From positions 3,922 to 67,921 of the forward strand of contig CAYHUD010000001.1 in assembly GCA_964360025.1 (NCBI GenBank): 64,000 nucleotides of DNA. The letters are read 5' to 3'. A program made the position numbers and the translations under genes. The notes under the pieces are model-generated. The model was not told where the DNA came from. It saw only the letters and a list, made by a program, of their open reading frames with translations, and made no database searches. Positions 4,563 to 63,718 of the stretch are shown one piece after another (position 1 is the stretch's first letter; every line of letters begins with the position of its first letter). Source of the stretch: an uncultured Candidatus Saccharibacteria bacterium (lineage in GTDB: Bacteria > Patescibacteriota > Minisyncoccia > UBA6257 > JAUSGH01).

Positions 4563-4683
4563 GCTTCGCTCTCAATGACAACAGATGGAGATTCTTCGCG
4601 CAACGCTCAGAATGACAGAAAAACCGCTCTAGCGACGGCGGCCATCGGCTCGCCAAAGCTCTAGCGACGGCGGCCGTGAAATG
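4563..4683. repeat. family A fragment (gagattcttcgcgcaacgctcagaatgaca) plus 2x direct repeat 'ctctagcgacggcggcc'; overlaps 3' end of recombinase gene
   Basis: direct sequence match to family A modules; 17-bp exact duplication 40 bp apart. Confidence 0.6.
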
Positions 4684-47563: not shown

Positions 47564-49432
47564 ATGGACGACCTTAATCCTCAGCAAAAACTAGCCGTCA
47601 ACCACCCCGGAGGACCGCTTTTAATCATCGCCGGAGCCGGATCGGGGAAAACAAAAACCCTGACTTCGCGTATCGTCCGCCTCGTAGAGTCCGGCGTCCC
47701 CGCCGCGGCTATTTTAGCCATCACCTTCACCAACAAAGCGGCTGAAGAAATGCGAAACAGAATAATGCGACAAGGGACAGGAGACAAACAAATCACCGCG
47801 GCGTTCATCGGCACATTCCACTCCTGGGGCGCGCGGGTTTTGAAACAGGAGGCGCGATTTTTCGGACGGACGGAAAACTTTTCCATCTTTGACGAGGACG
47901 ACAGCCTGCGGACGGTAAAAGCAATCGTCAAAGAAATGAATTTGGATAAAGAAAAATTTAATCCGGCGGGATTTCGCGCCAAAATCGGCGATATAAAAAA
48001 CGAACTTTTGTCTTCAGAGGATCTGCACGCTGAAGGAAGCGTCCGCGAAAAACTTGCCGCCGACATTTACGAAAAATATGAAGAGGCGCTCAAAAAAAAT
48101 AATGCTTTTGACTTTGACGACCTCATCACAAAAGTCGTTGTCCTTTTTATGCGGCATCCGGAGGTTCTGGAAAAATATAGAAATAAATATCAACAAATAC
48201 TCGTCGACGAGTATCAGGATGTGAACACCTCGCAATACCGATTGGTAAAACTTCTCGCGGAAAAACATAAAAACATAACCGTGGTCGGAGACGACGCGCA
48301 GGCGATTTACGCTTTCCGCGGATCGGACTTCCGCATCTTTTTAAACTTTGACCGCGACTGGCCAGATGCCACAATCATCAAGCTGGAAGAAAACTACCGC
48401 TCTACGGCGAACATCATTTCCGCCGCTTCAAACCTCATCAAAAATAATGTCCTGCAGAAACCGAAGTCGCTCTGGACGCAAAACGAAAACGGAGAAAAAA
48501 TCTCTATTGACGGCTTCGCGACCGAAGACGATGAGTCGTATTTTTTAACGACGCGCATTTTGGAAATAGTCCGCCGGACAAAAAATAATTCTTTACTAAG
48601 GATGGATCGCGATCCCCAGATCGCGATACTCTATCGGACGAATGCCCAATCACGCGCGATAGAACAAGCGCTCCTCCAAAACGGAATTCCTTACCGTATT
48701 TACGGCGGACTGAAATTTTATGACCGCATGGAAATCAAAGATATTGTTTCCGCGCTCGTCTCTGCTTCCAATCCCGAAAACGAGATGGCCCAAGAACGCA
48801 TCAGAAAAAATTTCGGGAAAAAAGAAGCTGCGCGTCTCATGGGTGAGATGCCGCGCCTCGCCCAAAAGTTACAACCCGCGGAACTCATCGGTTTTTTTCT
48901 GGAAGAAACAAGATATCTGGAATATTTGGAAAATAATTATAAAAATTATGCCGAACGGATTGAAAACGTCAACGAACTCATTTCTTTCGCCGGAACTTTT
49001 TCTCCAGATAATAAAACCCCCTCCGAAAAAGGAACAGGGCTTGCCGCTTTTTTGGAACAGATCAGCCTTGTGTCTTCGCTTGACACCCCAAACGGCAAAA
49101 TCAATAGCTGCTCCGGAAGGACGACGATCACCCTCATGACGATTCACGCTTCAAAGGGACTGGAGTTCAGTCATGTTTTTGTGGCGGGAGCGGCGGAGGG
49201 ATTTTTACCCCATGAAAGATCAATCACTGAAGAAAACGGACTGGAAGAAGAAAGGCGGCTGATGTATGTGGCAATGACGCGCGCCAAAGAACGGTTATTC
49301 CTCACTTTTTACGGCATTCCTTCGCGATTTCTCTACGAAATACCGCAAGAATTGACCGATTTTAAGGATCATGTAGCGACAAAACGGCGCCTAGCGTCGT
49401 TTGAGGACGAGGATTATATAAGTTATGATTAA
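47564..49432 (+). CDS. UvrD/PcrA/Rep-family ATP-dependent DNA helicase
   Basis: Walker A AGAGSGKTKTLTSRI, motif II VDEYQD, later helicase motifs. Confidence 0.9.
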   Translation: MDDLNPQQKLAVNHPGGPLLIIAGAGSGKTKTLTSRIVRLVESGVPAAAILAITFTNKAAEEMRNRIMRQGTGDKQITAAFIGTFHSWGARVLKQEARFFGRTENFSIFDEDDSLRTVKAIVKEMNLDKEKFNPAGFRAKIGDIKNELLSSEDLHAEGSVREKLAADIYEKYEEALKKNNAFDFDDLITKVVVLFMRHPEVLEKYRNKYQQILVDEYQDVNTSQYRLVKLLAEKHKNITVVGDDAQAIYAFRGSDFRIFLNFDRDWPDATIIKLEENYRSTANIISAASNLIKNNVLQKPKSLWTQNENGEKISIDGFATEDDESYFLTTRILEIVRRTKNNSLLRMDRDPQIAILYRTNAQSRAIEQALLQNGIPYRIYGGLKFYDRMEIKDIVSALVSASNPENEMAQERIRKNFGKKEAARLMGEMPRLAQKLQPAELIGFFLEETRYLEYLENNYKNYAERIENVNELISFAGTFSPDNKTPSEKGTGLAAFLEQISLVSSLDTPNGKINSCSGRTTITLMTIHASKGLEFSHVFVAGAAEGFLPHERSITEENGLEEERRLMYVAMTRAKERLFLTFYGIPSRFLYEIPQELTDFKDHVATKRRLASFEDEDYISYD

Positions 49433-49509
49433 ACATCGTTCAAAGAACGATGTTTAATGTGTGGGGGTGGGCGTGAAACACGGGGATTTAGAGACTAAGT
49501 ACAAATTCT

Positions 49510-50391
49510 ATGCACCAACGACTCGGACAACACTTTTTAATCAATAAATCGGCTATTGCGGAAACAATTGCCGCATTGACATTGGAGGAAAATGATTTAG
49601 TTGTGGAGATCGGGCCCGGGCATGGAGCTCTTACGCTACCCCTAGCTCAAAAATGTGTAGGTTTTAACTGCAAAATCATGGCTATTGAGAAAGACGCCGC
49701 GCTTGTGGATAACCTGTCAGAAACGATGCGGAAATACGGCAATATGGTGCAAATTATTGCCGGGGATGCGCTCGAAGAACTGCCTAAACTCGCAAAGCGC
49801 GAATCGCTGGGCGATGAAGACGGAAAAGGGTGGAAACTGGTGGGAAATATACCCTATTACATCACCGGAAAATTGCTAAGAATCATCGGGGAGCTAGAAA
49901 ATAAGCCCCACATTACGGTTTTGATGGTCCAAAAAGAAGTCGCGGAAAGGATAACAGCCACTCCAAAAGGGGGAATGAATCCCGTTAGAAGTAGCCCGCC
50001 CATAGGCCCTTCGGGCGCGCTTCGCGCGGGCGCGACTTCTAACGGGATGAATCTGCTTGCCGCCGCAACTCAATTCTGGAGCGATATTTCCATCATAAAA
50101 CGCTTAAAACCTAGCGATTTTGATCCGCCGCCAGAGGTGGACTCGGCAATAATTAAATTAAAGATCAAAGATCAAAGATCAAAAAGACGGGAGGCTGAGG
50201 GTTATTATAAATTGATCAAAATTGCCTTTAAACAACCAAGAAAGACGCTTTTGAATAACCTTGTAGATGGTCTTGATGATAAAAAAGAGGTGATTTTACA
50301 GAAAATCGCCGATTTGGGCTTTAACGAAAAAACTCGGGGGCAAGAATTGAGCGTGGAACAGCTTTTGGTTTTGGCGAGATCCTTCGGCTAA
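49510..50391 (+). CDS. rsmA: 16S rRNA (adenine1518/1519-N6)-dimethyltransferase RsmA/KsgA
   Basis: LGQHFL, VEIGPGHGALT, GNIPYYITGKLL; contains in-frame family D insertion; 3' end lies in repeat. Confidence 0.85.
   Translation: MHQRLGQHFLINKSAIAETIAALTLEENDLVVEIGPGHGALTLPLAQKCVGFNCKIMAIEKDAALVDNLSETMRKYGNMVQIIAGDALEELPKLAKRESLGDEDGKGWKLVGNIPYYITGKLLRIIGELENKPHITVLMVQKEVAERITATPKGGMNPVRSSPPIGPSGALRAGATSNGMNLLAAATQFWSDISIIKRLKPSDFDPPPEVDSAIIKLKIKDQRSKRREAEGYYKLIKIAFKQPRKTLLNNLVDGLDDKKEVILQKIADLGFNEKTRGQELSVEQLLVLARSFG
49979..50048. repeat. family D palindromic element inserted in frame in rsmA, flanked by ATGAAT direct duplication
   Basis: cccgttagaagt...acttctaacggg; encodes extra NPVRSSPPIGPSGALRAGATSNG between duplicated GMN codons. 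Confidence 0.7.
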
Positions 50392-50745
50392 CACCTCAGG
50401 ATGATAAAGAATAACCTCGGGACAACAAACACAACCCTGTCATTCTGAGCCTGCCTGCCCGCTTCGCCCGCCTAGACTCGGCGAGGCCTGGCCGTGGCTT
50501 CAGCGAGGCGAGCCGGCAGGCAGGCGTTGCGCGAAGAATCTCGAGATCCTTCGCTTCGCTCAGGATGACAAAAATTAGCCTCGGGATGGTCAACTAAGTA
50601 ACGAGATCCTTCGGCTAACACCTCGGGATGATAAAGAATAACCTCGGGACAACAAACACAACCCTGTCATTCTGAGCGTTGCGCGAAGAATCTCGAGATC
50701 CTTCGCTTCGCTCAGGATGACAAAAATTGGTTTCGGGATGGTTCG
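50380..50745. repeat. family A repeat array 5, includes ~225-bp tandem duplication (50386-50610 / 50611-50745) and nested long palindrome 50449-50526
   Basis: 'gagatccttcggctaacacctc.ggatgataaagaataacctcgggacaacaaacacaaccctgtcattctgagc' present twice. Confidence 0.85.
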
Positions 50746-50806
50746 CTAAGTGGTGCGAACCACTTATTCACATCTTGTTCACATCGGAGAATGATATAAT
50801 AAAGTA

Positions 50807-51583
50807 ATGCGAAAGCTTTTAACGCTCGGTTTCGTCGCAGTAATTTTGATTTTCTCCGCGCTTATAACTCTCGGCAACTGGAGTTTGAATGACGACAAAA
50901 AACAGGCGGCTGACGACTCTGCCAAAAATCCCGGCGTCTCTATTTCTTTTCCTCAGATTGAAGAGCAAAAAATAGCCGAGGCGTTGCTCCAAAAAACCCT
51001 CTCGCAGACCACAAAAATTCTGGGTGAAAATGCCACGAAAAAATTAGCCGACGATCTCTCCAAAGAAATAGTTGAAAAAAATCCTAACGGACCGGGACCT
51101 CTGGGAAGCCAAAAAATCAGCGTGCCGCAAGCAGAGGAAATAGTCGCCGATTTTTTGCAAAAGGGCGTGGATAATTTTAATTATGAAGAACTGAAGCCCG
51201 CGATTGCCGACTCCGATTTGAATATTGTTGGCGATGATCCCGCCGCGCTTGCCCGATATTATAAAAACTTTTTTGAAATCCTGAGCGGAAATTTTAATCT
51301 CGGCCCCGCCGAATCCGATCCGCAGAATTCTTTGGACATTCTGGTTTCCGTCTATGAGAACTACATTAAGAAATTTTATTTGTTGGAAACTCCTGAGAAA
51401 TTCGCCGACATACAGAAACAACAGATCTCGCTTCTCGCCGCTCAGAGAAATATTTACCGCCTGATGAGGGACTATGAAAATGATCCGCTTAAAGCCGTGC
51501 TGGCGATGAAGGCGCTTGACACGGTAAAACAAGAAACCGCCGATCTCTATACCAAGCTGGCGAAGACGGTGGCGAAAATTTAA
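50807..51583 (+). CDS. hypothetical membrane-anchored protein (first gene of T4SS-like cluster)
   Basis: N-terminal TM; co-directional cluster. Confidence 0.5.
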   Translation: MRKLLTLGFVAVILIFSALITLGNWSLNDDKKQAADDSAKNPGVSISFPQIEEQKIAEALLQKTLSQTTKILGENATKKLADDLSKEIVEKNPNGPGPLGSQKISVPQAEEIVADFLQKGVDNFNYEELKPAIADSDLNIVGDDPAALARYYKNFFEILSGNFNLGPAESDPQNSLDILVSVYENYIKKFYLLETPEKFADIQKQQISLLAAQRNIYRLMRDYENDPLKAVLAMKALDTVKQETADLYTKLAKTVAKI

Positions 51584-51625
51584 TAAGCGGTAATCAACAC
51601 GCAGAAAAGAAGAGCGAAAACTTAA

Positions 51626-53272
51626 ATGAAATTTTTAAAAAAAATAATTTTGGCGGGACTGCTGGCGGCGATGATTCTGCCGTATATGGGCGCGCCCCTC
51701 AAAGCGCAGGCGCAAGATGCCGCTTCAATATCCCGCGCCGCCACAAGAGCCGCCAGAATAGTAGCGGCGGAAGCGTGGGTCGCGGCGGCGACCGCAAGAT
51801 TTGAAGCGGCAACCTTGGCAGCCAGTTTCGTGCCTCCGTTTAATCCCTATTTGATAGTCCCCGGGGGACCTCTGATCGTGGCCGATTTCGGAGTCAGAAC
51901 CCAAGAGGCGGCGGCGGCGGCCGAAGAACTCGCCCGCGCCAGTAAAGCTCTGGCCGATGCCATAGCTGAAACGGAGGACAGTATTTTAGATATCTTGGAA
52001 AAAGTTCTTTTTGAAAGTTTGAAGAAAAAGATTTTGGATATGATGGTGGACCAGATCATCGGCTATATTCAGGGAGAGGGTGCGCCGCGTTTCATCACCG
52101 ACTGGGAGGGATTTTTCGGAGAAATCGCCCAGGGCGCCGTGGGCGATCTCGCGCAGGCACTCGGGGCCGGATTTCTCTGCTCGCCATTTAGTTTAAAAAT
52201 AAAATTAAGCTTACTCTTGCCGCCTGTTGAGAGATTTAAAACAAACTTCACTTGCACGCTGGACCAAATCGTCGGCAACATAGAAAATTTTTATACTGAT
52301 TTCCGAAACGGCGGGTGGATCGCCTATGAGGCGGCGTGGTCCCCGCAAAATAATTACTATGGCGCGGTCTGGCTCGCCTGGGACGCGAAACAGAACACGA
52401 TCGCCAGCAAACTTTTTGCCTCGGCAAATGAAGCGGTCGCGAACGCCGGATTTCTGGGTGTAAAACAATGCGATGAAAATGGCGAGAATTGCCGCACGGT
52501 CACTCCCGGAAAAGTTTTGGGTGATCTTGTCGGCAAAGCTGTCGGCTCCGACATTGACTTCCTCGTGAACGCCGAGGACTTGAGCACTTATGTCGCCGCT
52601 ATCGCGAACGCGCTCATCAATCGTATCGTCCGCGAAGGCGTGGGACTCGCCGGGGTATCGCTCCCCTCGCAACCGCAAAAAGTGCGGACGCGCCAGGAAA
52701 TTAATGGCGTGGTTTATGGTCCCGCGAATATCGCTCCCGACATAAGAAACACAATCAACCAATACACAACTTCAATCAACGACCAGACGGGACAAAGCTC
52801 CGGCGGAGCTCAAATCGCGGCGACTTCAAAAACGGATTTTATAGAGCAGTTAAGTGTAATCCGCGACATCAGGACGGAAGCTCAATCATTCCTCACACAA
52901 CGGCTGGATTTGGAAAAAATACTCTTAACCAAGATCCAAGCCCTGGCGGCTTGCCTGAAAAATAAAGAGGGTCTTGCCAATGCGGCGGCGGAAGCAAAAG
53001 TTGCGGCGCAGCAAAAGATTGTTAATGATGCCAGTAAGCAAGTAGGCGACAATCTAGCTGTTATCAATAACCTTAATAATGTAATCAATCAAATTTCTCA
53101 GTTAACCGAAGCTCAATTTGCAGGGCTGGGGTCTACACTGTCCATTTCCGCGGTTGCCGAAGCTATCTCGTTTAGAACTAACGCCAAAAATCAGAGGGAC
53201 ACGGCTCTGGCGAATGTTCCGGCCCAAGTCACGAACGCAGACAACGATCTCGTGGCATGTAACGCACTTTAA
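51626..53272 (+). CDS. secreted Ala-rich hypothetical protein (548 aa)
   Basis: signal peptide MKFLKKIILAGLLAAMILPYMGAPLKA. Confidence 0.5.
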   Translation: MKFLKKIILAGLLAAMILPYMGAPLKAQAQDAASISRAATRAARIVAAEAWVAAATARFEAATLAASFVPPFNPYLIVPGGPLIVADFGVRTQEAAAAAEELARASKALADAIAETEDSILDILEKVLFESLKKKILDMMVDQIIGYIQGEGAPRFITDWEGFFGEIAQGAVGDLAQALGAGFLCSPFSLKIKLSLLLPPVERFKTNFTCTLDQIVGNIENFYTDFRNGGWIAYEAAWSPQNNYYGAVWLAWDAKQNTIASKLFASANEAVANAGFLGVKQCDENGENCRTVTPGKVLGDLVGKAVGSDIDFLVNAEDLSTYVAAIANALINRIVREGVGLAGVSLPSQPQKVRTRQEINGVVYGPANIAPDIRNTINQYTTSINDQTGQSSGGAQIAATSKTDFIEQLSVIRDIRTEAQSFLTQRLDLEKILLTKIQALAACLKNKEGLANAAAEAKVAAQQKIVNDASKQVGDNLAVINNLNNVINQISQLTEAQFAGLGSTLSISAVAEAISFRTNAKNQRDTALANVPAQVTNADNDLVACNAL

Positions 53273-53344
53273 GGATTCGTCTCGGCTTGCCGGAAGAGCG
53301 CGGTAGTAATAACGCTCTCCTCAGGCAAGCGGAGAAAACAAAAA

Positions 53345-55366
53345 ATGTCCGGATTTATTAAAAAACACTATAAGACAATTATTTTGGCATCGCTTTTCGC
53401 GGTTCTAGTTTTGGGCGGCTTGGGAATAGGCACCGAAAATACCTTTGCCGCAGGAGATGACGCCGCTAAAGGAGGCGAGTCTCAAAAGGAAAGCGGGTGG
53501 ACAGCCGGATTCAAAGCCGCGATCGGCGCCCTCGTTATACCGATAATTTATAAAATACTTTACATTATCAGCTATATAGCCGCGATTATTTTCAAATTCG
53601 GCGGCTACCTCATAGACGCCGTCATCTCTCTCAATACGCAGATTCTGGGAAGCTCTATGGTAACCACCGGCTGGACGATCACGCGCGATTTTGCGAACCT
53701 TGGCTTCGTTCTCGCCATCATTTATATCGCCTTCGCCACGATGCTCCGCGTATCGTCTTTTGAGTTAAAAAAGTTCCTGCTCCGCCTCGTGATTATGGCT
53801 CTGCTTATCAACTTCAGCCTGACAATAGCGGGTGTGTTTATCAAGGCCTCCGATAAAGTCTCCGCTTTCTTTATTGAAAAAATAAGCGGCGAGGGCAGTC
53901 TTGCCGATTTCGCGCAAGTTCTTGCGGGACCCACCATTAAAGAAATTGCCGCTGGAGAGAAAACAGAAAAAGAGGAAGAATCCGGAATTATCTCTGCCGT
54001 AAAAACCGGCGCCCGCGTCGGGCTTGGAGTAACGACCTTTGGAATGTCTGAAATAGTCGGGGAGGCTCTTGATGCTTATAAATTATTAAGCGCCAAGAAT
54101 ACGGACGGCAATCTGGATCTTGGGGAATCGGCGCTCGTTATGGTAGGCAAGGTATTCTTCCTTACGGCGTTTACGGTGATGTCGGCGATTATCTTCTTTG
54201 CCATTGGCGTCATGGTTCTCGTCCGCTGGCTGTGGCTGGTCGTACTTCTGATTCTCGCGCCTTTCGCCTGGCTAGCCTTTGCCGTCCCGCAACTCACTAA
54301 ATACTTTGAACTCTGGTGGGATAAATTCTGGAAATGGACGCTCTATCTTCCTGTGGTTTTATTCTTTTTATACCTTGCCATGACGGCCACTCTCTCACCC
54401 AATATCAATTCCCCAACCACACCGTTCTTTTCCACCGCCAATCTCCCCGGATACCAAACAACGCCTATCGGCAATGATTTCGGTTCTTACGGTAAAATCA
54501 TCATCGCCATCGGCCTCATGGTCGCCGGACTGATCGTCGGAGAGAAAATGAGCATTGCCGGAGCGAAGACAGGACTTGCCGCGGCAAAAACCACGAGAGA
54601 CTGGGCGATAGGCAAAGTGAAGGGCGTTGCCACGGGTGTCGCCATGGGTGCTGCCGGATATGCTTTGAGAAATACCCTTGCGGGACACCAGGATAAAGAA
54701 GGAAGGACCCTGGGACAGCGCATCGCCGCCGGAATTTCCACCGTGCCTCTCCTTGGCACTGCGGCCGCGCGCGGACTGGACAGTATCTCCACGCGCCGCC
54801 CGCAGGAAGTTGATAATTCGCAGAAACAATATGCTAATATGAGCGACGCTCTCCTCATGTCCAGCGCTGAACAGGGCCTGTGGAGGTTCAGTGATCCGGA
54901 GACCGCTGCCGTTGTGCGGGAACTTGCTAAACGCAAAAAACTCGGTAAGCTGCCAACCGACCGACTAATGGAACTTGCCAAGAAAGGAAAAACCTATGGC
55001 GCGGAAAAGGAGGTTTATAAAGCCAGACCGGATCTCGCTGATAATCCGCTGGAGATATTCAAAGGCCTTAGCCCCGGACAAAAAGCCGAGCTGGCTCCGG
55101 ACGTTTACTATGAATCTAAGAAATCCAATGATCCTAAGAAGCGGGCGTTGGTACTTAGCTTGAAAGAAAAAGATTTGAGAGAAATCGCGGCCAAAGGATC
55201 GGACGAGGTTATTGATGCCATCACCGCAACCCTTAAAGAAGCCATAACGATGCATGCCGCCGGAGTAGGCGCGGGCGCGTTTACCCCGGCCGAAGAAGCC
55301 TCTTTAAAGGGGGTGCTGAAAGCTATAGATGACAATATCGGACTAAAATCAACGTTTATTTTCTAA
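53345..55366 (+). CDS. polytopic membrane protein, VirB6/TrbL-like candidate
   Basis: many TM helices, size and cluster context with VirB4. Confidence 0.4.
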   Translation: MSGFIKKHYKTIILASLFAVLVLGGLGIGTENTFAAGDDAAKGGESQKESGWTAGFKAAIGALVIPIIYKILYIISYIAAIIFKFGGYLIDAVISLNTQILGSSMVTTGWTITRDFANLGFVLAIIYIAFATMLRVSSFELKKFLLRLVIMALLINFSLTIAGVFIKASDKVSAFFIEKISGEGSLADFAQVLAGPTIKEIAAGEKTEKEEESGIISAVKTGARVGLGVTTFGMSEIVGEALDAYKLLSAKNTDGNLDLGESALVMVGKVFFLTAFTVMSAIIFFAIGVMVLVRWLWLVVLLILAPFAWLAFAVPQLTKYFELWWDKFWKWTLYLPVVLFFLYLAMTATLSPNINSPTTPFFSTANLPGYQTTPIGNDFGSYGKIIIAIGLMVAGLIVGEKMSIAGAKTGLAAAKTTRDWAIGKVKGVATGVAMGAAGYALRNTLAGHQDKEGRTLGQRIAAGISTVPLLGTAAARGLDSISTRRPQEVDNSQKQYANMSDALLMSSAEQGLWRFSDPETAAVVRELAKRKKLGKLPTDRLMELAKKGKTYGAEKEVYKARPDLADNPLEIFKGLSPGQKAELAPDVYYESKKSNDPKKRALVLSLKEKDLREIAAKGSDEVIDAITATLKEAITMHAAGVGAGAFTPAEEASLKGVLKAIDDNIGLKSTFIF

Positions 55367-55378
55367 CTTGTAAAAACG

Positions 55379-56515
55379 ATGGACAACAAAACCCTACGCA
55401 CAACTTTCCGTGCACTGCCAAGCGACATCAAAGACTGGCTTTTTTCCGAAAAAGTAACCTATTCGGTAGCAGAGTTAAATACCCGCCTTAATATAAAAGG
55501 CGAGCGTGCAGGTGTTGTTGCTAAACTGGTAGCGCGGCTTGTCGTCCAGGATTTGGATACTCGCGATTTCGTGAACGAATTGGCGATAGAGTTAAATGTC
55601 AGCAATTCCGCCGCTAAGGCCATCACTAAAGAAGTTGAGGAAAAGGTTCTACACCCGATAGAAGCATCGCTTCGCGCCAATCTGGGAATTGATGTGGCTA
55701 TGCTCCATATGGGAAACGAGGTTTCCCTGTCATCGATTACGCCCCTACCGGATGAAGCCGAAAAAACTCCGGCGCCGCGTACGCCTTTTTCCGTGCCTGA
55801 CGCCGCTAAAAGCGAAGCCACCCCACATATCTTCGCTCCGATGGCGCCTAAAGTTTCCGACACAAAAACCCCCTCCGGTCCTTTTATACTACACACCGAA
55901 CAAGAACCGGCGAAACCCATCGCGCCGCCCATAAACGCCCCGCAAAGACCCACTTTCTCTATAAAAATTCCTCTGGCGCAAAAGAAATACGGCGCTCCTC
56001 CCGTAACAGCTCGCATTGAAACCGGCGCACCCGAAACCAGAACTCCCGAGACGCAAAAGACATCCGAATTCCAGGGCTCACGGATCATTCCGGTACCGCC
56101 CTTGCGCCAGAGCCTCACCATACAGCCCCCGCGCCGTCCGGTTTCATTTGAACCAATACAACCAAGTACAGCCAATCAGGCTCCCTTGAAAATAACACCT
56201 CCGCCACTCCGCCGCCTGCCCCCACTTCCGCCTCTTATAAAACCACAAAACCAACAAATCACTACCGCGCCGTCAGCGGCTCCCAAACAAGAGATTTCCA
56301 TTCTACCCATAAATCCCGCCCTTCCTGTAAAACCAAGCGTCCCCGCTCCGATTCCGGCCAGACCGGCGGCGCCGCCTTTAACATTGCCGCCCAAAGTTTC
56401 TTCGCCCGCCGCGCCGAAACCACCCATGCCCCAGATTCCGCTAAAAACACCGACAAATACGGTGAACATCCAAAAAGTAGTCCACTATTCCGACTTTTTC
56501 ACAAAGTTACAATAA
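55379..56515 (+). CDS. Pro-rich hypothetical protein
   Basis: PPxP-rich low-complexity C-terminal half. Confidence 0.45.
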   Translation: MDNKTLRTTFRALPSDIKDWLFSEKVTYSVAELNTRLNIKGERAGVVAKLVARLVVQDLDTRDFVNELAIELNVSNSAAKAITKEVEEKVLHPIEASLRANLGIDVAMLHMGNEVSLSSITPLPDEAEKTPAPRTPFSVPDAAKSEATPHIFAPMAPKVSDTKTPSGPFILHTEQEPAKPIAPPINAPQRPTFSIKIPLAQKKYGAPPVTARIETGAPETRTPETQKTSEFQGSRIIPVPPLRQSLTIQPPRRPVSFEPIQPSTANQAPLKITPPPLRRLPPLPPLIKPQNQQITTAPSAAPKQEISILPINPALPVKPSVPAPIPARPAAPPLTLPPKVSSPAAPKPPMPQIPLKTPTNTVNIQKVVHYSDFFTKLQ

Positions 56516-56516
56516 A

Positions 56517-56990
56517 ATGCAATTTCAAGTCCCACAATTTATAGAAACGGAGGACACCATCATCGGCTCCATTACGATCAGGCAATTTGTCTATATGGGC
56601 ATTGCCGGACTCATCAGTTTCGTGTCTTTCTTTTTTTTAAACACTACTTTGTGGCTGATATTTACCGGCTTTGTAGGCACGATCGCCGGAGCTCTGGCTT
56701 TCATTAAATATAACGGCAGGCCGTTATCTAAAATCATCCTCGCCATGTTCAACTATCTCTGGAAGCCGAAAATGTTTTTATGGAGGAGAAAAGAAGAGTT
56801 GGAAGCCCTGCGCGCCGAGGAGGCAGCCAAAAGAGGATCTCTGCTCCAGAACTTGTGGCTGCGCGTCACTGCCGGGAAAGAAGCCATACCCAAACGCGCT
56901 GATGCGCCCAAGTCTCTTGAAGAACGCTATCAAGTGGTGGAGAAGATTAGTGGGGAGAGGGATATGGCAAAGAGGGTGGACTATCGGTAA
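56517..56990 (+). CDS. PrgI/VirB3-like small membrane protein
   Basis: MQFQVPQFIETEDTIIGSITIRQFVYMGIAG... typical PrgI-type N-terminus + 2 TM. Confidence 0.5.
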   Translation: MQFQVPQFIETEDTIIGSITIRQFVYMGIAGLISFVSFFFLNTTLWLIFTGFVGTIAGALAFIKYNGRPLSKIILAMFNYLWKPKMFLWRRKEELEALRAEEAAKRGSLLQNLWLRVTAGKEAIPKRADAPKSLEERYQVVEKISGERDMAKRVDYR

Positions 56991-57206
56991 ATCATGAATC
57001 GACTTAAATCCCTCCCTCAACCCGCTGCGCTCGCCCAGCCGCTCGCTTGCTTGTCCTCGCCGCTCGCCCGCCGTGCGCTACGCGCCTAAAACGGCGGACC
57101 GTGCTCTCACGGCTCCGGGGGTTTCGGAGAGGAATTTAAGCCGATTCATTAATAGTCAATCCCCGCGCAATTCCTGAATTAAGAATTTGTTTGTATAATA
57201 AAGTAT

Positions 57207-57866
57207 ATGCCACAACAAAAAGAAGCTCGGCCGACGCAAGAATTTGTAGAAATTGATCGCGCGGAACAAGGTGTGCTTGTTTTAAAAAACGGCTCTTTGC
57301 GCCAAATACTTTTAGTATCCGGGGTTAATTTTGATCTGAAATCCGAGGAAGAACAGCAGATGATTATTTCCTCGTATCAGGCGATGCTTAATTCCCTGCG
57401 CTTTTCCCTGCAAATTTTCGTCCATTCCCGAAAAATCAACATAGAATCGTATTTGGCAAAATTGGAAGCGCGCCTCGCGGAAGAAACGAGCGAGCTTCTA
57501 AAAAACCAGATTACGGAATATATGGAGTTTATCCGCTCTTTCGTAGGACAAAATCCCATCATGACGAAGTCGTTTTTCGTAGTTGTGCCCTTTGATCCCA
57601 TCGTCATACCTGGATCAGAAACAAAAACCGGAAAAAGATTATTTGGTCTTTTTAGAAAATCCTCCGCAGAGGGAAATACCGAAGCAAAACAGCATGAACT
57701 CCAGGAAAATATGCGCCAGCTTTCGCAAAGAGTGTCGCAAGTCGTTGCCGCGATATCGCAAATCGGCCTGCGGGCCGTCCCCCTGCAGAACGAAGAGGTG
57801 ATTGAGCTGTTTTATAATCTTTACAATCCCGAAGCGCAGGAGAAAAAAAGTCTGCCAACCGCATAA
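57207..57866 (+). CDS. VirB4-family N-terminal domain encoded as a separate ORF
   Basis: LVLKNGSLRQILLVSGVNFDLKSEEEQQMIISSYQAMLNSLRFSLQIFV parallels VirB4 N-termini. Confidence 0.5.
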   Translation: MPQQKEARPTQEFVEIDRAEQGVLVLKNGSLRQILLVSGVNFDLKSEEEQQMIISSYQAMLNSLRFSLQIFVHSRKINIESYLAKLEARLAEETSELLKNQITEYMEFIRSFVGQNPIMTKSFFVVVPFDPIVIPGSETKTGKRLFGLFRKSSAEGNTEAKQHELQENMRQLSQRVSQVVAAISQIGLRAVPLQNEEVIELFYNLYNPEAQEKKSLPTA

Positions 57867-57873
57867 TAATAAA

Positions 57874-59589
57874 ATGGAAAAAGAACTGGAAAATTTAATA
57901 GCGCCTCCGGCCGTAGAAATCAATTCTGACTATTTGAAAGTCGGTAATAAATTTACGCGTTCTTTATTCCTTTTCACCTATCCGCGCTATCTTTCAACCG
58001 GCTGGTTTTCTCCCGTGATCAATATGCCCGAGCTTTTGGATATCTCCATCTTTATCCACCCCGTTGATACCGCTCTGGCGCTTAAGAATTTGAGAAAGAA
58101 GGTAACGCAACTGCAGTCGCAGATCAATGAATCCGCTGAAAAGGGTCTGGTCCGGAATCCCGTTTTAGAAACCGCCTTTCAGGACATTGAAAAACTCCGC
58201 GATGATCTCCAAAGATCGCAGGAAAACCTTTTCAATGTTGGTGTCTACATGACCCTTTACGCCGACTCCGTGGACGAACTGAATAAACTTGCCTCCAAGA
58301 TTACAAACTTTCTTGAAGGACGCCTTGTCTATACGAAACCGGCGGCTTTCCAACAGGTAGAGGGTTGGTCTTCCACGCTCCCTATCGGTACGGACAAGCT
58401 TACCATCCAGACTCCGCTCAATACTTCCCCCATCTCCTCGTTTTTCCCGTTCATTTCAGCAAATCTTACCTCGGAAGAAGGTATTCTATACGGCATCAAT
58501 ACGGCTAATAACACCTTAATCATTTTTGACCGCTTCTCGCTGGAGAATGCCAATATGGTCGTTTTCGCTAAATCCGGCGCGGGAAAATCATATTTTACCA
58601 AGCTGGAGGCCCTGCGACTTTTAATGTTGGGGACTGATGTGATGATTATTGACCCGGAAAACGAATATGAGAATCTTGCGAATACTGTGGGCGGCAGTTT
58701 CTTTAAGATCTCTCTGGCATCAGAGCATCGCATCAACCCGATGGATATTCCGGTTATTCCCCAAGACGAAGACCCGTCTGATGCCTTAAAATCGCATTTC
58801 GCTAATCTTTCCGGACTGCTGAAGCTGATGATGGGCGGATCTGACCCGCAGAAAGGCGGGATCACACCGGAAGAAGACGCTATTCTAGACCGAGCCATCT
58901 CGGAAACATACGCCGCGCGCGACATTTTGCCCGGCAAAGACTTCTCGGGCATAGAAGCGCCTCTACTTGAAGATTTGGAAGTGGTTCTGCGGGGGATTGA
59001 AGGGGGAACAGGACTTGCGGAACGGCTCTACAAATTTACTAAAGGCAACTATTCCGGTTTTACCAACCAGAAGACAAACGTAGATGTTAAAAATCGTCTT
59101 TTGGTTTTCTCTATCCGCGATCTGGAAGAAGAACTGCGCCCGATAGCCATTTATATAATTTTAAACTTCATCTGGAACATTATCAGGGCGGAGTTAAAAC
59201 GGCGCGTCGTGATGATTGACGAGGCCTGGTGGATGATGAAAAATCCCGACAGCGCCCTTTTCCTTTTCGGACTTGTCAAACGCGCCCGCAAATACTATCT
59301 GGGAGTTACAACCATCACACAGGACGTAGAGGACTTCCTGCTCTCGCCCTACGGACGACCGATTATTACCAATTCGTCCCTGCAACTACTCCTAAAACAA
59401 GCTCCGGCAATGATTGACCTCATCACCAAAACCTTTAACCTCTCCGAAGGCGAGAAAAATTATCTTCTGGAGGTTCCTGTGGGGCAAGGACTTTTCATTG
59501 CCGGCCTCCAACATGCCGCTATTCAAATAGTAGCTTCATATCTTGAGGATCAGATTGTGACCACGAAGCCGCAGGAGATAGCAGGATAG
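57874..59589 (+). CDS. VirB4/TrbE-family type IV secretion ATPase (ATPase portion)
   Basis: Walker A AKSGAGKSYF, Walker B VVMIDEAWWMM. Confidence 0.8.
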   Translation: MEKELENLIAPPAVEINSDYLKVGNKFTRSLFLFTYPRYLSTGWFSPVINMPELLDISIFIHPVDTALALKNLRKKVTQLQSQINESAEKGLVRNPVLETAFQDIEKLRDDLQRSQENLFNVGVYMTLYADSVDELNKLASKITNFLEGRLVYTKPAAFQQVEGWSSTLPIGTDKLTIQTPLNTSPISSFFPFISANLTSEEGILYGINTANNTLIIFDRFSLENANMVVFAKSGAGKSYFTKLEALRLLMLGTDVMIIDPENEYENLANTVGGSFFKISLASEHRINPMDIPVIPQDEDPSDALKSHFANLSGLLKLMMGGSDPQKGGITPEEDAILDRAISETYAARDILPGKDFSGIEAPLLEDLEVVLRGIEGGTGLAERLYKFTKGNYSGFTNQKTNVDVKNRLLVFSIRDLEEELRPIAIYIILNFIWNIIRAELKRRVVMIDEAWWMMKNPDSALFLFGLVKRARKYYLGVTTITQDVEDFLLSPYGRPIITNSSLQLLLKQAPAMIDLITKTFNLSEGEKNYLLEVPVGQGLFIAGLQHAAIQIVASYLEDQIVTTKPQEIAG

Positions 59590-59618
59590 GGTTTAGAAGA
59601 TAGGTTATCATCTTATTT

Positions 59619-60026
59619 ATGGAAAATGGGCCGAAAATTACTGGCGTAGAGGCGTTTCTGCTCCTCGTTTTTGTGGGTTTTTTGGATTTAATAGGAGTTT
59701 TGTTATTGCTTATAGGTCTGGACGACTTCTTTCTTCTGGATTCCGGAACAGCCGCGACTCAGTTTTATCTCCGCCGCAAGGGGGTAAAAGCGACCTATGA
59801 CCTCGCCATGGGGCTCGTAGAAATGATTCCCTATGTCGGCGCGCTTCCGCTTAAAACTATTGGTGTTATTATGGTTATATGGGCCGATTGGCGGGGGAGT
59901 GAATCGCGGGCTGAATCAGCCGCGGAAGAACTGCAATACATAACGAAGCCGGAGACGGCACTGACATCGTTTGAATATACGCCACGTGGGTCCGGGAAGA
60001 TTGATAACAGCAAAAAAGCGGCTTAA
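59619..60026 (+). CDS. small membrane protein (2 TM)
   Basis: ORF in cluster. Confidence 0.45.
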   Translation: MENGPKITGVEAFLLLVFVGFLDLIGVLLLLIGLDDFFLLDSGTAATQFYLRRKGVKATYDLAMGLVEMIPYVGALPLKTIGVIMVIWADWRGSESRAESAAEELQYITKPETALTSFEYTPRGSGKIDNSKKAA

Positions 60027-60031
60027 GCTAT

Positions 60032-60715
60032 ATGAAAAATTATTTTTTAAAATTAAGTTTGTTTATAACGCTTTTTTCGCTTTTGACAACCGTCGTCGTC
60101 CACGCCCAGGCAAACGGGGCCAAATTCTTTGTTTCCTGGCGTTCAGAAAACTATGTTCCCGGATGGTATGCCGGGAAAATACTGCCATCTCCGGGCAGTT
60201 CGGTGATAATCGGTTTTGAATTGATTGAGGGGGACAAGGCGGTAAATATCACACAAAACGAGATACGATGGTTCGCAAACGATGTCCTATTCCAGAAAGG
60301 GTTCGGTCTAAAAACAGTGAAATACGCCATCCCCACCACGCGCACATCTAACTCCCAAAAGATAAAGATAGTCGTCGGCGGCTATAAGGGCGCTGATATT
60401 TCCAAATTTATTGATATTCCGGTTGCCAGTGCGGAGGTAGTCGTGCCGGTTCCCTATGTGGGCGGCGCCCTCTCTCCCGGAAAACACACCCTGAGTTCAC
60501 TGCTCTACTTCTGGAATATAAGGGAGTTATTCGCAACTTTGCTAGAATGGTCTTATAACGGCACAGAAATCTCTTCCGCGGGAAATAATAATTCTCTGGA
60601 AATAGAAGTTCCTGCCACGGCGAGCGGTGGCACCCTGCGATTAAGCGTCCAAGCGACAAAAATAGGGGACGAAGCAACTTTTGCCAAAAATAACGCGGTG
60701 TTATTGATTAAATAA
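60032..60715 (+). CDS. secreted hypothetical protein
   Basis: signal peptide MKNYFLKLSLFITLFSLLTTVVVHA. Confidence 0.5.
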   Translation: MKNYFLKLSLFITLFSLLTTVVVHAQANGAKFFVSWRSENYVPGWYAGKILPSPGSSVIIGFELIEGDKAVNITQNEIRWFANDVLFQKGFGLKTVKYAIPTTRTSNSQKIKIVVGGYKGADISKFIDIPVASAEVVVPVPYVGGALSPGKHTLSSLLYFWNIRELFATLLEWSYNGTEISSAGNNNSLEIEVPATASGGTLRLSVQATKIGDEATFAKNNAVLLIK

Positions 60716-60717
60716 TT

Positions 60718-61341
60718 ATGCAGAATTTATTTTCTAACATACTACCTATAGCGCGCGCTCAAGTCTCTACCGAGCTGGTCCGGGGGGTAAATACTTTTTA
60801 TGAATGGAGTATTATGATCGCGGGAATCCTCGCCTTCGGGCTAATTGTCGTCGGCGGAATACAATATATCGTAAGCGCCGGTAATCCCGGATCGCAATCT
60901 GATGCCAAAGACCGCATTATCCAAGCTGTTACCGGCCTCGTCCTGCTCCTATCCGGAGTTTTTATACTTTCCACGGTTAACCCGCGGCTGACTAATATTC
61001 CCACCATCAGTTCATCTCCGCAACAAGAACCCCAAAAAATATTAAACCCTCTGGATGCTAATCAAGAAGAAAGGGAGGCGTTTTATAGAGAAAAAATTAA
61101 AAACAATGAGACCTACAGAGCCAGTTTAAGATTTACCATCAAAGATAAAATCATGAAGCTTGCGCCAAGCGAGAAAACCGCCGTTTTAAACGCCTATCAG
61201 ACGCTTGTGGAGGATGCAATCAGCGATACACAGATAAAATCTTTTTTAATGAGATCTCCTCTTAATTTCAGAGAGGATGAGGTGGTTTATTTTATGGGTT
61301 TATCGTCTAAAGAAAGATTTGAATTATTACAAGGAAAATGA
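60718..61341 (+). CDS. VirB2/TrbC pilin-like membrane protein candidate
   Basis: N-terminal leader, two hydrophobic helices separated by short polar loop. Confidence 0.35.
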   Translation: MQNLFSNILPIARAQVSTELVRGVNTFYEWSIMIAGILAFGLIVVGGIQYIVSAGNPGSQSDAKDRIIQAVTGLVLLLSGVFILSTVNPRLTNIPTISSSPQQEPQKILNPLDANQEEREAFYREKIKNNETYRASLRFTIKDKIMKLAPSEKTAVLNAYQTLVEDAISDTQIKSFLMRSPLNFREDEVVYFMGLSSKERFELLQGK

Positions 61342-62441
61342 AAAGTATCTTGAAAATTTTAGGCGTCCTATCGGTCTTAGCTATTATAGGCGCGAGCGGT
61401 TATTTTATCTACAAGGCATTTTTTACAGCTCCGGCGACTACTACCATAGCAAAACCCGAAACCATAGACCAAAAAAAAGCTGAGTTGGGGGTTAGATCGC
61501 CCGATCTAAACGTCTTCAGTAAAAACAAAGCCCTATCCTACTGGATTGACGAAAAGACGGGCGCCATTTACTACGCCGATCCTACGGGAACAATCTTTAA
61601 ACTATTCGGCGCCGAAAGAGAAGAGGAGATTAGCACGCAAAGCCTGCCCGACTTCCACTCCCTGACACCTTCGCCTGACGGCACTAAGGCGCTTGCCGAA
61701 TTTGGTTATCCTTTTGAACCGGTTTTTGCCGTATTTAACACTGAAAATAATAGCTGGGAAAGATTGCCGCAGGGGACGATTGCTGCCGATTTTGACCCAA
61801 CATCAAAACAAATAGCTTTTGTCACGAACGGAACGTCAGGATCACTCAAAATATTAAACCTTGCTGATAAAAAATCAGTAACTATCACCGCCGTCCCCGC
61901 GGGAGATCTGATTCTATCTTGGATAAAGAGCGATAAAATATACCTGCAGTCAAAACCGACATCTGCCTCCTCTCTAGAGACGTGGTCCGCTGACCCTGTC
62001 AAAAAAACTTTAAAGAAATTGGATATTTTGGGGTCTGCTTTGGATACGATTATGCTTAGGTGGTTCAAAAAATCGGGATTAGGATTAAGATTAAGCGCGC
62101 CTACGGTCAACACAACCAATCTTTCCCTGGTTCATGTGGCTGGAGCAGAGCTCTTAGGCCTCCCATTTAAAACACTCCCCGATAAATGCGCTTTCGCCAA
62201 TGCTGATCTGCTTTATTGCGCCGTTCCCAACAATCTCCCTGCGCGCGCCAACCTGCCCGACGATTATTTCCAGAAAAAGATTTTTACCACCGACTCCATA
62301 ATTTCATATAATTTGGAGACTCTGGAAGAAAGGGTGTTGTTTAGCGGAGAAGTGGACGCCACAGAGCTTAATATTCTCGGCAATCAGTTATTTTTCATCA
62401 ATAGATATGATGAAAAAATATATTCGCTAAAAATAAATTAG
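61338..62441 (+). CDS. membrane-anchored hypothetical protein with periplasmic beta-rich domain
   Basis: ATGA overlap with upstream gene; N-terminal TM. Confidence 0.5.
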   Translation: MKSILKILGVLSVLAIIGASGYFIYKAFFTAPATTTIAKPETIDQKKAELGVRSPDLNVFSKNKALSYWIDEKTGAIYYADPTGTIFKLFGAEREEEISTQSLPDFHSLTPSPDGTKALAEFGYPFEPVFAVFNTENNSWERLPQGTIAADFDPTSKQIAFVTNGTSGSLKILNLADKKSVTITAVPAGDLILSWIKSDKIYLQSKPTSASSLETWSADPVKKTLKKLDILGSALDTIMLRWFKKSGLGLRLSAPTVNTTNLSLVHVAGAELLGLPFKTLPDKCAFANADLLYCAVPNNLPARANLPDDYFQKKIFTTDSIISYNLETLEERVLFSGEVDATELNILGNQLFFINRYDEKIYSLKIN

Positions 62442-62495: not shown

Positions 62496-62975
62496 TTAAA
62501 TGGGCTTTACGATGACGTAACGCGTGGGTCCTGATCCAACACTCTCCGTCTTAACATCGGGCCGCGTAGAGAGTTCTGTGTGCACCAAACGCCTTTCATA
62601 AGCATTCATCGCCGGCAAAGACACCTCTGCTTTACTTAAAAGCGCTTTTTTAGCGGCGGCTTTGGCGATTTCCACAATAAGGCGCTCTCTTTCTTTCCGA
62701 TAATTGTTAACATCAACAAAAATGTATTCGGCGCCCTCTTTTCTGGACGATAAGCGTAAAATTACCTCTAGATCAGAAACGATTTTGGGCACCCAGGGCT
62801 TAATCCATTCGTCTTCGTTGATGAAAATCCTAATCCGACGGCCTTCGGGCTCGGCCTCAACACTCACGTCGGAAAAACCCATCAATTCCAGCATTTTTTT
62901 AGTTGTTTCAATGATTTTCTCCATCCCGTTAGAGATGTCTGCCGCATTAATAGTTTGCTTTGCTATGTTTTCCAT
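62496..62975 (-). CDS. jag: Jag/KhpB-like RNA-binding protein (KH + R3H)
   Basis: C-terminal R3H (ERRLVHTELS) and position downstream of yidC. Confidence 0.7.
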   Translation of the reverse strand: MENIAKQTINAADISNGMEKIIETTKKMLELMGFSDVSVEAEPEGRRIRIFINEDEWIKPWVPKIVSDLEVILRLSSRKEGAEYIFVDVNNYRKERERLIVEIAKAAAKKALLSKAEVSLPAMNAYERRLVHTELSTRPDVKTESVGSGPTRYVIVKPI

Positions 62976-63010
62976 ATTTTTAATATTTAGAATTTGTTTG
63001 ATAGATATCT

Positions 63011-63718
63011 CTAACGGGATCCATTAGTGTTGGGTAAATTTAACTGCTTATTAATAATCCTCTGCTGTAATACGGAAAACGCAGACGATGTCATCCAATA
63101 AACACCTACCGCCGCCGGCAAACTCCATAAAATAACCAGGGTAAGGACGGGGCCGATATAAGACATCTTCTTTGCGATACGGGACTGATCTGTCTCCTCG
63201 CCGGGAAGCGTATGCGGAAGACTTAAGACGCTTTGATAGTACTGAAAAAGGGCTGCTAAAACCACAATCACTATACTCTTTTCCTGGAGATCAATCAAGC
63301 CCAGGGAGATTGTATTTAAATGTCCCGGATTGGAGATAAATGAATAAAGAACGTCCAGAGTGCCATCCGTAAATCCGCTCATAAATACTTTATAGAGGGC
63401 GATAAGTATCGGCAATTGGACCAGAATCAATAAAAATCCGGAAAACGGATTAACTTTATGGTTTTTATAGAGCTCCATCAAAGCGTGGGCCTGTTTTTCT
63501 TTGTCATCTTTATGAACATGTTGGATTCTTGCCACCTCCGGCTGTATTTTTTGCATAATGGTCTGCTGTTTGAAGCTTTTATAGAAAAGCGGGTAAAAAA
63601 TCAGACGAATAACTATGGTCAATAAAACAATGGCGATGCCGAGGTCGCTAAAAGTAACCGTGTTATATAAAGAGATAAGGATATTGAATAAGGGAATATA
63701 AAGCAGTGTTTGGAACAT
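63011..63718 (-). CDS. yidC: YidC/Oxa1-family membrane protein insertase (short form)
   Basis: 5 TM pattern, rnpA-yidC-jag order. Confidence 0.8.
   Translation of the reverse strand: MFQTLLYIPLFNILISLYNTVTFSDLGIAIVLLTIVIRLIFYPLFYKSFKQQTIMQKIQPEVARIQHVHKDDKEKQAHALMELYKNHKVNPFSGFLLILVQLPILIALYKVFMSGFTDGTLDVLYSFISNPGHLNTISLGLIDLQEKSIVIVVLAALFQYYQSVLSLPHTLPGEETDQSRIAKKMSYIGPVLTLVILWSLPAAVGVYWMTSSAFSVLQQRIINKQLNLPNTNGSR

Follow-up and report, generated by a model that had tools for sequence, protein, structure and literature searches.

Type IV secretion systems (T4SSs) have recently been recognised as part of the epibiotic lifestyle of Patescibacteria. Using transposon sequencing (Tn-seq), Wang et al. 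(2023) found the epibiotic growth of Southlakia epibionticum to depend on an unusual T4SS that is Gram-positive-like, includes pilins that are themselves essential, and has no recognisable relaxase or coupling protein (PMC10633639). Quinonero-Coronel et al. (2025) reported VirB4 in 2,417 of 3,035 Patescibacteria genomes, forming a monophyletic clade nested in mating-pair formation type FATA (MPF-FATA) and accompanied by TrsD, PrgI, VirB6 and VirB2-like pilins and almost never by a relaxase; in Paceibacteria the VirB4 loci adjoin dnaA, dnaN, rnpA, ksgA and rpmH (PMC12102498). Essentiality for epibiotic growth and independence from comEC have both been described (PMC10633639, PMC12857230), the role of the system has been called 'completely unknown' (PMC11665869), and tubular structures that are possibly T4SS pili were seen at the host interface of a cultivated member, together with host RNA uptake (bioRxiv 10.64898/2026.06.21.733656). 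As a machine known to be required for epibiotic life, the Patescibacteria T4SS has few counterparts in this very large, mostly uncultured radiation. Here we describe an eleven-gene cluster at positions 50807–62441 of a 64-kb stretch of DNA (the window) from a groundwater Patescibacteria genome (Hainich H52, 0.1 µm fraction), whose proteins have identical counterparts in H52 0.1-µm assemblies.

We read the cluster, with a probability of roughly 0.85, as a chromosomal, vertically inherited Patescibacteria-type T4SS in the Paceibacteria arrangement, derived from conjugation machinery of the monoderm MPF-FATA type and with coupling protein and relaxase lost from the locus. Every testable defining feature of the Patescibacteria clade was found (VirB4, TrsD, PrgI, VirB6, a PF18895 pilin and the chromosomal context), and as in the published loci the parts are the same, no relaxase or type IV coupling protein (T4CP) is present at the locus, and ksgA, rnpA and dnaA are chromosomal neighbours (PMC12102498, PMC10633639). 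An initial reading made without database searches (the sequence-only reading) had proposed a T4SS-like cluster of the kind seen in small-genome episymbionts and not serving conjugation, and the proposal matches the published Patescibacteria systems (PMC12102498, PMC10633639). The locus is itself a typical member of the system described in 2023–2025 and no new kind of system; what is added here is the annotation of its components, synteny statistics and relatives on monoderm plasmids. It differs from the Southlakia locus (SEML1_0006–0019, Saccharimonadia), where two VirB6-like genes are combined with an NTF2-like (VirB8-fold) protein and several small pilins in an array; in the window locus the pilin is single and long-tailed, no NTF2-like protein was recognised, and six further conserved genes (genes 1, 2, 4, 8, 9 and 11) are present.

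Core secretion genes

The eleven co-directional open reading frames (ORFs) proposed by the sequence-only reading were recovered with exactly the same boundaries, all on the forward strand, and are numbered in order (Table 1). Intergenic gaps range from −4 to 72 nucleotides (nt), with the single exception of 216 nt between PrgI (ending at 56990) and TrsD (starting at 57207). A promoter and terminator scan gave sites no more numerous than in shuffled sequence. Curated family models cover five of the eleven genes, namely PrgI, VirB4, TrsD, the pilin and, weakly when scored directly, the VirB6-like protein. The sequence-only reading had made its case depend on family matches beyond VirB4, and the models for PrgI, TrsD and pilin supplied them. 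All ten non-VirB4 families are single-copy within the window. For comparison, one genome per species of the Genome Taxonomy Database (GTDB) was scanned, giving 80 loci (L-numbers are labels of the compared loci) in which gene order was determined by tblastn and iterated family hidden Markov models (HMMs).

The ATPase, gene 7, scores 376.6 bits against its best curated model, NF045971 of the CD1110 family (cutoff 325), over profile positions 183–728, and also matches P-loop_TraG (PF19044, 1.4e-23) and the Thermoanaerobacter VirB4 structure 4ag5 (2.1e-39). Both its Walker A (GAGKS, 58576–58590) and Walker B (MIDEAW, 59212–59229) motifs are intact. At least 8000 homologues were found; where a source names them, the top matches are Candidate Phyla Radiation (CPR) proteins or proteins of unclassified metagenome-assembled genomes (MAGs), including proteins labelled Harrisonbacteria, Wolfebacteria, Pacebacteria or Parcubacteria that are 69–79% identical. 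Intact Walker motifs together with 70–79% identity across Paceibacteria lineages point to strong purifying selection on VirB4. The TrsD-like protein, gene 6, further matches TIGR00929 (positions 19–186), CD1110 (positions 7–111) and, in precomputed annotation, PF26593 (TraC-like).

The identities proposed for three other core genes also held. PrgI (gene 5), recognised by its PrgI/VirB3 family model, was found in 73 of the 80 related loci. The pilin-like two-helix protein (gene 10) matches both T4SS_pilin and the Mbov_0395 pilin-like family (1.2e-5); its family is conserved solely over the VirB2-like domain (residues ~25–90), the C-terminal tail of ~115 residues being poorly conserved, and members are commonly 200–440 residues long. 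Direct scores for gene 3 are weak (CD3337/EF1877 0.0021, and a weak precomputed TrbL_3 match); PF04610 (TrbL/VirB6) picks up 5 of 23 orthologues, the best at 1.9e-7, in keeping with the VirB6/TrbL-like membrane protein that had been proposed.

A single-nucleotide polymorphism (SNP) within the population, at 56940 (L083 position 4012) and seen in a further replicate assembly from Hainich, introduces an earlier stop that shortens PrgI from 157 to 141 residues. PrgI thus appears able to do without its C-terminal tail.

The VirB4 region and the question of conjugation

The sequence-only reading had drawn VirB4-family domains at 57207–59589 as one feature. The family was right, and the single feature was not: two genes, TrsD and a short VirB4, lie there in different frames, which is why the cluster counts eleven genes. 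The TrsD ORF ends in TAA TAA TAA and the VirB4 ATG follows 7 nt later, at 57874, in a different frame, with an A7 run directly upstream of the junction.

Two ORFs in different frames behind an A7 run, in a VirB4 family that is derived from conjugation (CD1110), could also be the frameshifted pseudogene of a transfer module belonging to an integrative conjugative element (ICE) or its decaying remnant. This we consider extremely improbable, as 74 of 79 related loci encode TrsD and VirB4 separately and only 5 have them fused; the spacers range from −4 to 602 nt, and each of the three frame offsets occurs. The arrangement of TrsD with a short VirB4 is known from pGO1-type systems and is reported as the most abundant Patescibacteria T4SS component (PMC12102498). 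The Walker motifs are intact, and three independent Hainich assemblies agree with the window: over the compared stretches they show no indels and differ by 3, 4 and 7 SNPs. A frameshift or pseudogene was rejected because the two-gene form is the norm in relatives and is reproduced in independent assemblies.

An ICE is further opposed by what surrounds the cluster. Pfam scans beyond the cluster covered 40 window ORFs, including every ORF of at least 220 residues, and what they returned was housekeeping functions or unassigned proteins throughout. Neither a VirD4/T4CP nor a relaxase family was present in these ORFs or in a flanking extension of ~2.8 kb seen through L083, a locus of the same population (7 SNPs across 11 kb), in agreement with the earlier statement that neither was visible. 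The sole integrase of the window is an Xer-like gene at 4661–5620, 45 kb from the cluster, and the GC content of the cluster is like that of its surroundings. With no linked relaxase or T4CP, no adjacent integrase, ordinary GC content and a housekeeping synteny that is not patchy and extends over many species, we rejected an ICE.

PrgI, TrsD and VirB4 match consecutive segments (12–99, 103–217 and 287–891) of NF045975, a model of the fused VirB4 of Mycoplasma ICEs. This collinearity, together with a fusion of PrgI with TrsD on an Embleya plasmid, supports a physical association of the three proteins as a complex, as judged from gene and protein order.

Gene order and inheritance

The common order among the compared loci is uvrD-ksgA-1-2-VirB6-4-PrgI-TrsD-VirB4-8-9-pilin-11, followed by jag and yidC on the opposite strand and then by dnaA- and dnaN-sized ORFs, and it was found in most loci with enough flanking sequence. 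Twenty-eight Paceibacteria species representatives were fully covered, meaning that their sequence runs from ksgA to 4.5 kb or more beyond VirB4; all 11 families are present in 23 of these, and 24 of the 28 are collinear. Synteny in relatives, which the sequence-only reading had named as a check, is thus conserved. Because gene order between housekeeping genes is conserved across Paceibacteria, we read the locus as vertically inherited and not as an ICE; the pattern is that of a core cellular machine passed on by descent, and a mobile element does not fit it.

A reduced variant (L008, L022, L023 and L024) has the order ksgA-VirB6-4-PrgI-fused TrsD-VirB4 (~790 residues)-(8)-pilin, with genes 1, 2, 9 and 11 missing. 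The existence of this variant makes genes 1, 2, 9 and 11 behave as an accessory block. The fused form of ~790 residues accounts for about a quarter of the best 120 VirB4 homologues. Taken together, the comparison defines an 11-gene Paceibacteria module in which the six conserved extra components are targets for structural and genetic work.

Relatives on monoderm plasmids

Searching plasmids with tblastn returned only monoderm VirB4 of the CD1110 type, at 29–35% identity. The C. botulinum plasmid pCDC3875 (L086; MPF-FATA, CTn2/CD1110 type) shares a VirB4 of 32% identity and the order VirB6-PrgI-VirB4. Unlike the window locus, it has a VirD4 (CD1115) directly upstream, a full-length VirB4 of 797 residues and, downstream, an SLT transglycosylase, and its relaxase is typed as MOBP. 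A pilin is missing, and none of the profiles of genes 1, 2, 4, 8, 9 and 11 finds a match there.

The best VirB4 matches outside the CPR are on a megaplasmid of Pontibacillus sp. ALD_SL1 (L087) and a plasmid of Embleya sp. NBC_00896 (L088), both with the order PF18895 pilin-VirB6-like-PrgI-TrsD-short VirB4 and with VirB4 at 34–35% identity. HMMs built from the Paceibacteria families match their proteins (TrsD 4.3e-46, pilin 4e-19, PrgI 9.6e-11), and that of gene 3 matches the VirB6-like proteins of Pontibacillus (1.6e-20) and Embleya (1.8e-6). In contrast to the window locus, both are plasmid-borne and have no homologues of genes 1, 2, 4, 8, 9 and 11. Embleya keeps a T4CP, Replic_Relax and NlpC/P60 and has PrgI fused with TrsD; neither a T4CP nor a relaxase lies within 12 kb of the Pontibacillus cluster. 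Since PrgI, TrsD and VirB4 are collinear with fused proteins and a core including the pilin occurs on Bacillota and Actinomycetota plasmids, these comparisons suggest that the pilin arrived with the ancestral monoderm system and not later from diderm systems. Published statements that Gram-positive T4SSs are without VirB2 pilins may need qualifying, because monoderm plasmids carry the five-gene core with its pilin.

The Trs system of pGO1/pSK41 (TrsD and TrsE) also has the VirB4 N-terminal domain as a separate small TrsD upstream of the ATPase (PMC12102498). It differs, by description, in being a conjugative plasmid system with a relaxase and T4CP and no pilin (in part after PMC12102498).

Assembly and direction of transport

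By analogy with known T4SSs, the VirB6-like protein would form a membrane channel, and PrgI/VirB3 would tether a two-polypeptide ATPase made of the TrsD-like N-terminal domain and the short VirB4. This ATPase would drive the VirB2-like pilin's extraction and its polymerisation into a wall-crossing tube, and the products of genes 1, 2, 9 and 11 and the variable pilin tail may form a lineage-specific module that spans the wall or contacts the host.

As to what passes through such a tube and in which direction, we tentatively prefer, at somewhat less than even odds, that host macromolecules (nucleic acids) are imported without a T4CP, as ComB and Ced do, to effector export. The H. pylori ComB and archaeal Ced systems share with the window locus a VirB4-family ATPase, small membrane proteins, a polytopic membrane protein and the lack of a relaxase or coupling protein, and they are a mechanistic precedent for the import of macromolecules (PMC11665869, PMC12102498). 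ComB differs in being a diderm system with VirB7–10. The resemblance to both is functional and compositional only, as no specific homology was found: the CedB model gave 40.2 bits (cutoff 700) and the CedD model 17.1 (cutoff 600), over the P-loop region only.

The machine could instead co-opt the host bacterium, in the manner of effector-translocating T4SSs, by exporting proteins, effectors or toxins onto it or into it, recruiting them without a coupling protein at the locus or through a distant VirD4 homologue. Wang et al. suggest protein export in view of the missing relaxase and T4CP (PMC10633639), and effector delivery is noted as speculation elsewhere (PMC11665869). The known systems without a T4CP, however, either import (ComB, Ced) or export in a two-step, Sec-dependent manner (Ptl), and family-model scans found no effector-like or toxin/immunity gene in or beside the cluster. 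Gene 4, largely disordered and with neither a signal peptide nor a transmembrane segment, could in principle be a substrate or an adaptor. VirD4-like genes do occur elsewhere in most Patescibacteria genomes, yet in S. epibionticum the distant t4cp is non-essential and the T4SS genes are essential (PMC12102498). On balance we regard export as rather unlikely.

It is quite improbable, in our view, that the cluster chiefly builds an adhesive or contact pilus for host attachment through which no macromolecule passes. The variable and presumably surface-exposed tail of the VirB2-like pilin would suit such a pilus, as would the immunoglobulin-like (Ig-like) and beta-propeller extracellular proteins, which are of types frequent in adhesins, but type IV pili already serve adhesion and motility in Patescibacteria (PMC12857230, PMC11665869) and translocating systems typically conserve a VirB6 channel protein together with VirB4, as is the case here.

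Several points weigh against the reading of the locus as a Patescibacteria-type T4SS that has lost its coupling protein and, tentatively, imports. The sequence itself does not bear directly on the direction of transport, and all experimental data come from a Saccharimonadia species whose locus is arranged differently. The VirD4-like matches of other Patescibacteria genomes usually lie far from virB4 (PMC12102498), and a T4CP homologue may be present elsewhere in this genome, beyond the 64 kb and ~2.8 kb examined. The VirB6 identity of the window's own gene 3 relies on the weak direct scores given above, and six of the eleven genes are tied to secretion by conserved synteny alone. Neither a VirB8-like nor a VirB1-like component was identified inside 50807–62441: genes 1, 2, 4, 8 and 9 gave no sequence or profile match to the NTF2 fold of VirB8, gene 1 being a bitopic candidate with 3 homologues only, and family-model scans found no VirB1-like cell-wall hydrolase.

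Outside the cluster, 3.4 kb upstream, a gene with LysM and Peptidase_M23 domains lies on the reverse strand at 46341–47396, with counterparts close to the locus in L004, L016, L024 and L036. VirB1-like proteins with M23/LysM domains have been noted (PMC12102498). It is possible that this gene is a candidate substitute for VirB1, and equally that it is a general cell-wall enzyme.

Six further conserved genes

The sequence-only reading had expected several lineage-specific components, and six genes are indeed without family assignment. Gene 1 has no Pfam or NCBIfam match and no profile match in the PDB; a search of 5.8 billion proteins gave only 3 homologues, and by profile the family is found in 38 loci. 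Bacterial TSP3 (calcium-binding) repeats occur in 13 of 26 orthologues, and with half of its orthologues carrying them gene 1 is probably extracytoplasmic and outward-facing. The family of gene 2 comprises 5,669 cluster representatives (at 50% identity), and no fold can be recognised in it. Structure prediction, which had been suggested for this gene, was obtained and left its fold unassigned: two AlphaFold2 (AF2) models (predicted local distance difference test score, pLDDT, 72) have no significant structural neighbour, and a PDB profile search was empty.

Gene 4, found in 58 loci, is the Pro-rich protein that had been picked out earlier, with no Pfam match across 24 orthologues and no PDB profile match. 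The gene 8 family is in 68 loci, also with no PDB profile match. For gene 9 (66 loci) the profile matches the Hoc Ig domain at 0.0095, and orthologues match the BiPBP_C, PKD, Ig and Big families. The profile of gene 11 (54 loci) matches TolB chains in the PDB at 1e-9 to 1e-8 over query positions 98–296. The TolB-like propeller of gene 11, the Ig-like character of gene 9 and the large fold-less family of gene 2 are new here; the text of the survey PMC12102498 does not mention TolB, propeller, YidC or hypothetical.

It is tempting to see genes 1, 2, 4, 8, 9 and 11 and the variable pilin tail as a new extracellular module that would make a monoderm conjugation channel into a tube penetrating the host, for import of its RNA or DNA, with the reduced lineage (without 1, 2, 9 and 11, and with fused TrsD-VirB4) having a different mode of host interaction. 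Taken as a whole, this scenario is doubtful.

Table 1. Coordinates of the cluster genes, their neighbours and related features. Coordinates refer to the window unless another locus is named.
Feature	Coordinates	Strand	Remarks
ksgA/rsmA, upstream housekeeping neighbour	49510–50391	+	RrnaAD PF00398 7.7e-42; upstream in related loci too
Gene 1, N-terminally membrane-anchored, fast-evolving, helical-looking C-terminal domain	50807–51583	+	hydrophobic segment residues 1–28
Gene 2, secreted, mostly alpha-helical, invariant cysteines, C-terminal helical bundle	51626–53272	+	
Gene 3, VirB6/TrbL-like polytopic membrane protein, long hydrophilic C-terminal extension	53345–55366	+	~8 hydrophobic segments
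Gene 4, conserved N-terminal domain of ~95 residues and long Pro-rich region	55379–56515	+	no signal peptide, no transmembrane segment
Gene 5, PrgI/VirB3-like membrane protein	56517–56990	+	PF12666 1.2e-10, 42.2 bits, cutoff 27
ORF-less inverted-repeat element in PrgI-TrsD gap	56994–57149		156 nt, 30-nt arms, 96-nt GC-rich centre
Gene 6, TrsD-like, equals VirB4 N-terminal domain	57207–57866	+	NF041427 TrsD 5.8e-12
Gene 7, VirB4 ATPase (C-terminal ~570 residues)	57874–59589	+	NF045971 CD1110 family 2.5e-112
Gene 8, small membrane protein, conserved D23 and P77	59619–60026	+	~3 transmembrane segments
Gene 9, secreted, tandem Ig-like beta-sandwich domains	60032–60715	+	signal peptide
Gene 10, VirB2-like pilin, two transmembrane helices	60718–61341	+	T4SS_pilin PF18895 4.6e-9, 36.7 bits, cutoff 26.6
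Gene 11, N-terminally anchored TolB-like beta-propeller	61338–62441	+	transmembrane segment 1–25
jag/khpB (62496–62975) and yidC (63011–63718)	62496–63718	−	R3H 8e-16, 60KD_IMP 4.3e-47; convergent with cluster
Pontibacillus NZ_CP062975 cluster	L087 7462–13776		pilin-pilin-VirB6-like-PrgI-TrsD-short VirB4-M23 peptidase (1,050 residues)
Embleya NZ_CP108778 cluster	L088 7577–17441		pilin (PF18895 3.3e-20)-VirB6-like-PrgI-TrsD fusion-short VirB4-T4CP-Replic_Relax
Inserted ORFs	L009 4053–4511, 5243–5689		
Inserted ORF	L010 9612–9989		
Inserted ORF	L050 2999–3379		
Inserted ORF	L053 8235–8663		
Inserted ORF	L059 9460–9855		
Inserted ORF	L071 8640–9044		
Inserted ORF	L078 5789–6145		

Elements at gene junctions

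The gap between PrgI and TrsD holds an inverted-repeat element without an ORF, whose arms are 80% complementary and whose centre is GC- and C-rich, with a predicted fold of −64.2 kcal/mol (z −2.9). We weighed an origin of transfer (oriT)-like site, a miniature inverted-repeat transposable element (MITE) and a known RNA as explanations; the element has no Rfam match and no second copy in the window. A metagenome scan gave one match, a chance coding match, and no further copy. In related loci, small ORFs of the 23S_rRNA_IVP (PF05635) or PDDEXK_3/GxxExxY (PF13366) families are inserted repeatedly at the PrgI|TrsD and TrsD|VirB4 junctions, with inverted repeats on both sides (Table 1). These two junctions look like hotspots for intervening sequence (IVS)-type elements, and the window's inverted repeat may be a relative or remnant of such elements.

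Genomic surroundings

The cluster is flanked upstream by uvrD/pcrA and ksgA, with 415 nt between ksgA and gene 1, and downstream by the convergent jag, yidC and rnpA and then dnaA. In L083, Ribonuclease_P (rnpA) is followed by DnaA at the window equivalent of ~64472, ~470 bp past the window end, so that dnaA starts ~2.0 kb past the last cluster gene. The genes uvrD and ksgA and the whole T4SS cluster (47564–62441) are transcribed toward dnaA (~64472) and converge on jag-yidC-rnpA. If the replication origin (oriC) lies beside dnaA, the supposedly highly expressed T4SS operon would run head-on to replication; its orientation is common to ~70% of the window genes. A negative GC skew at 54–62 kb was considered as a replication signal and set aside; the Pro-rich gene together with the C-rich element between PrgI and TrsD would be a simpler cause.

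At the other end of the window, an ORF on the reverse strand (359–946, 195 residues) has ~65% GC against a region average of ~48% and a Gly/Arg/Pro-rich N-terminus. Several frames are open across it and GC-rich hairpins at 300–360 precede it; it may be foreign or low-complexity sequence.

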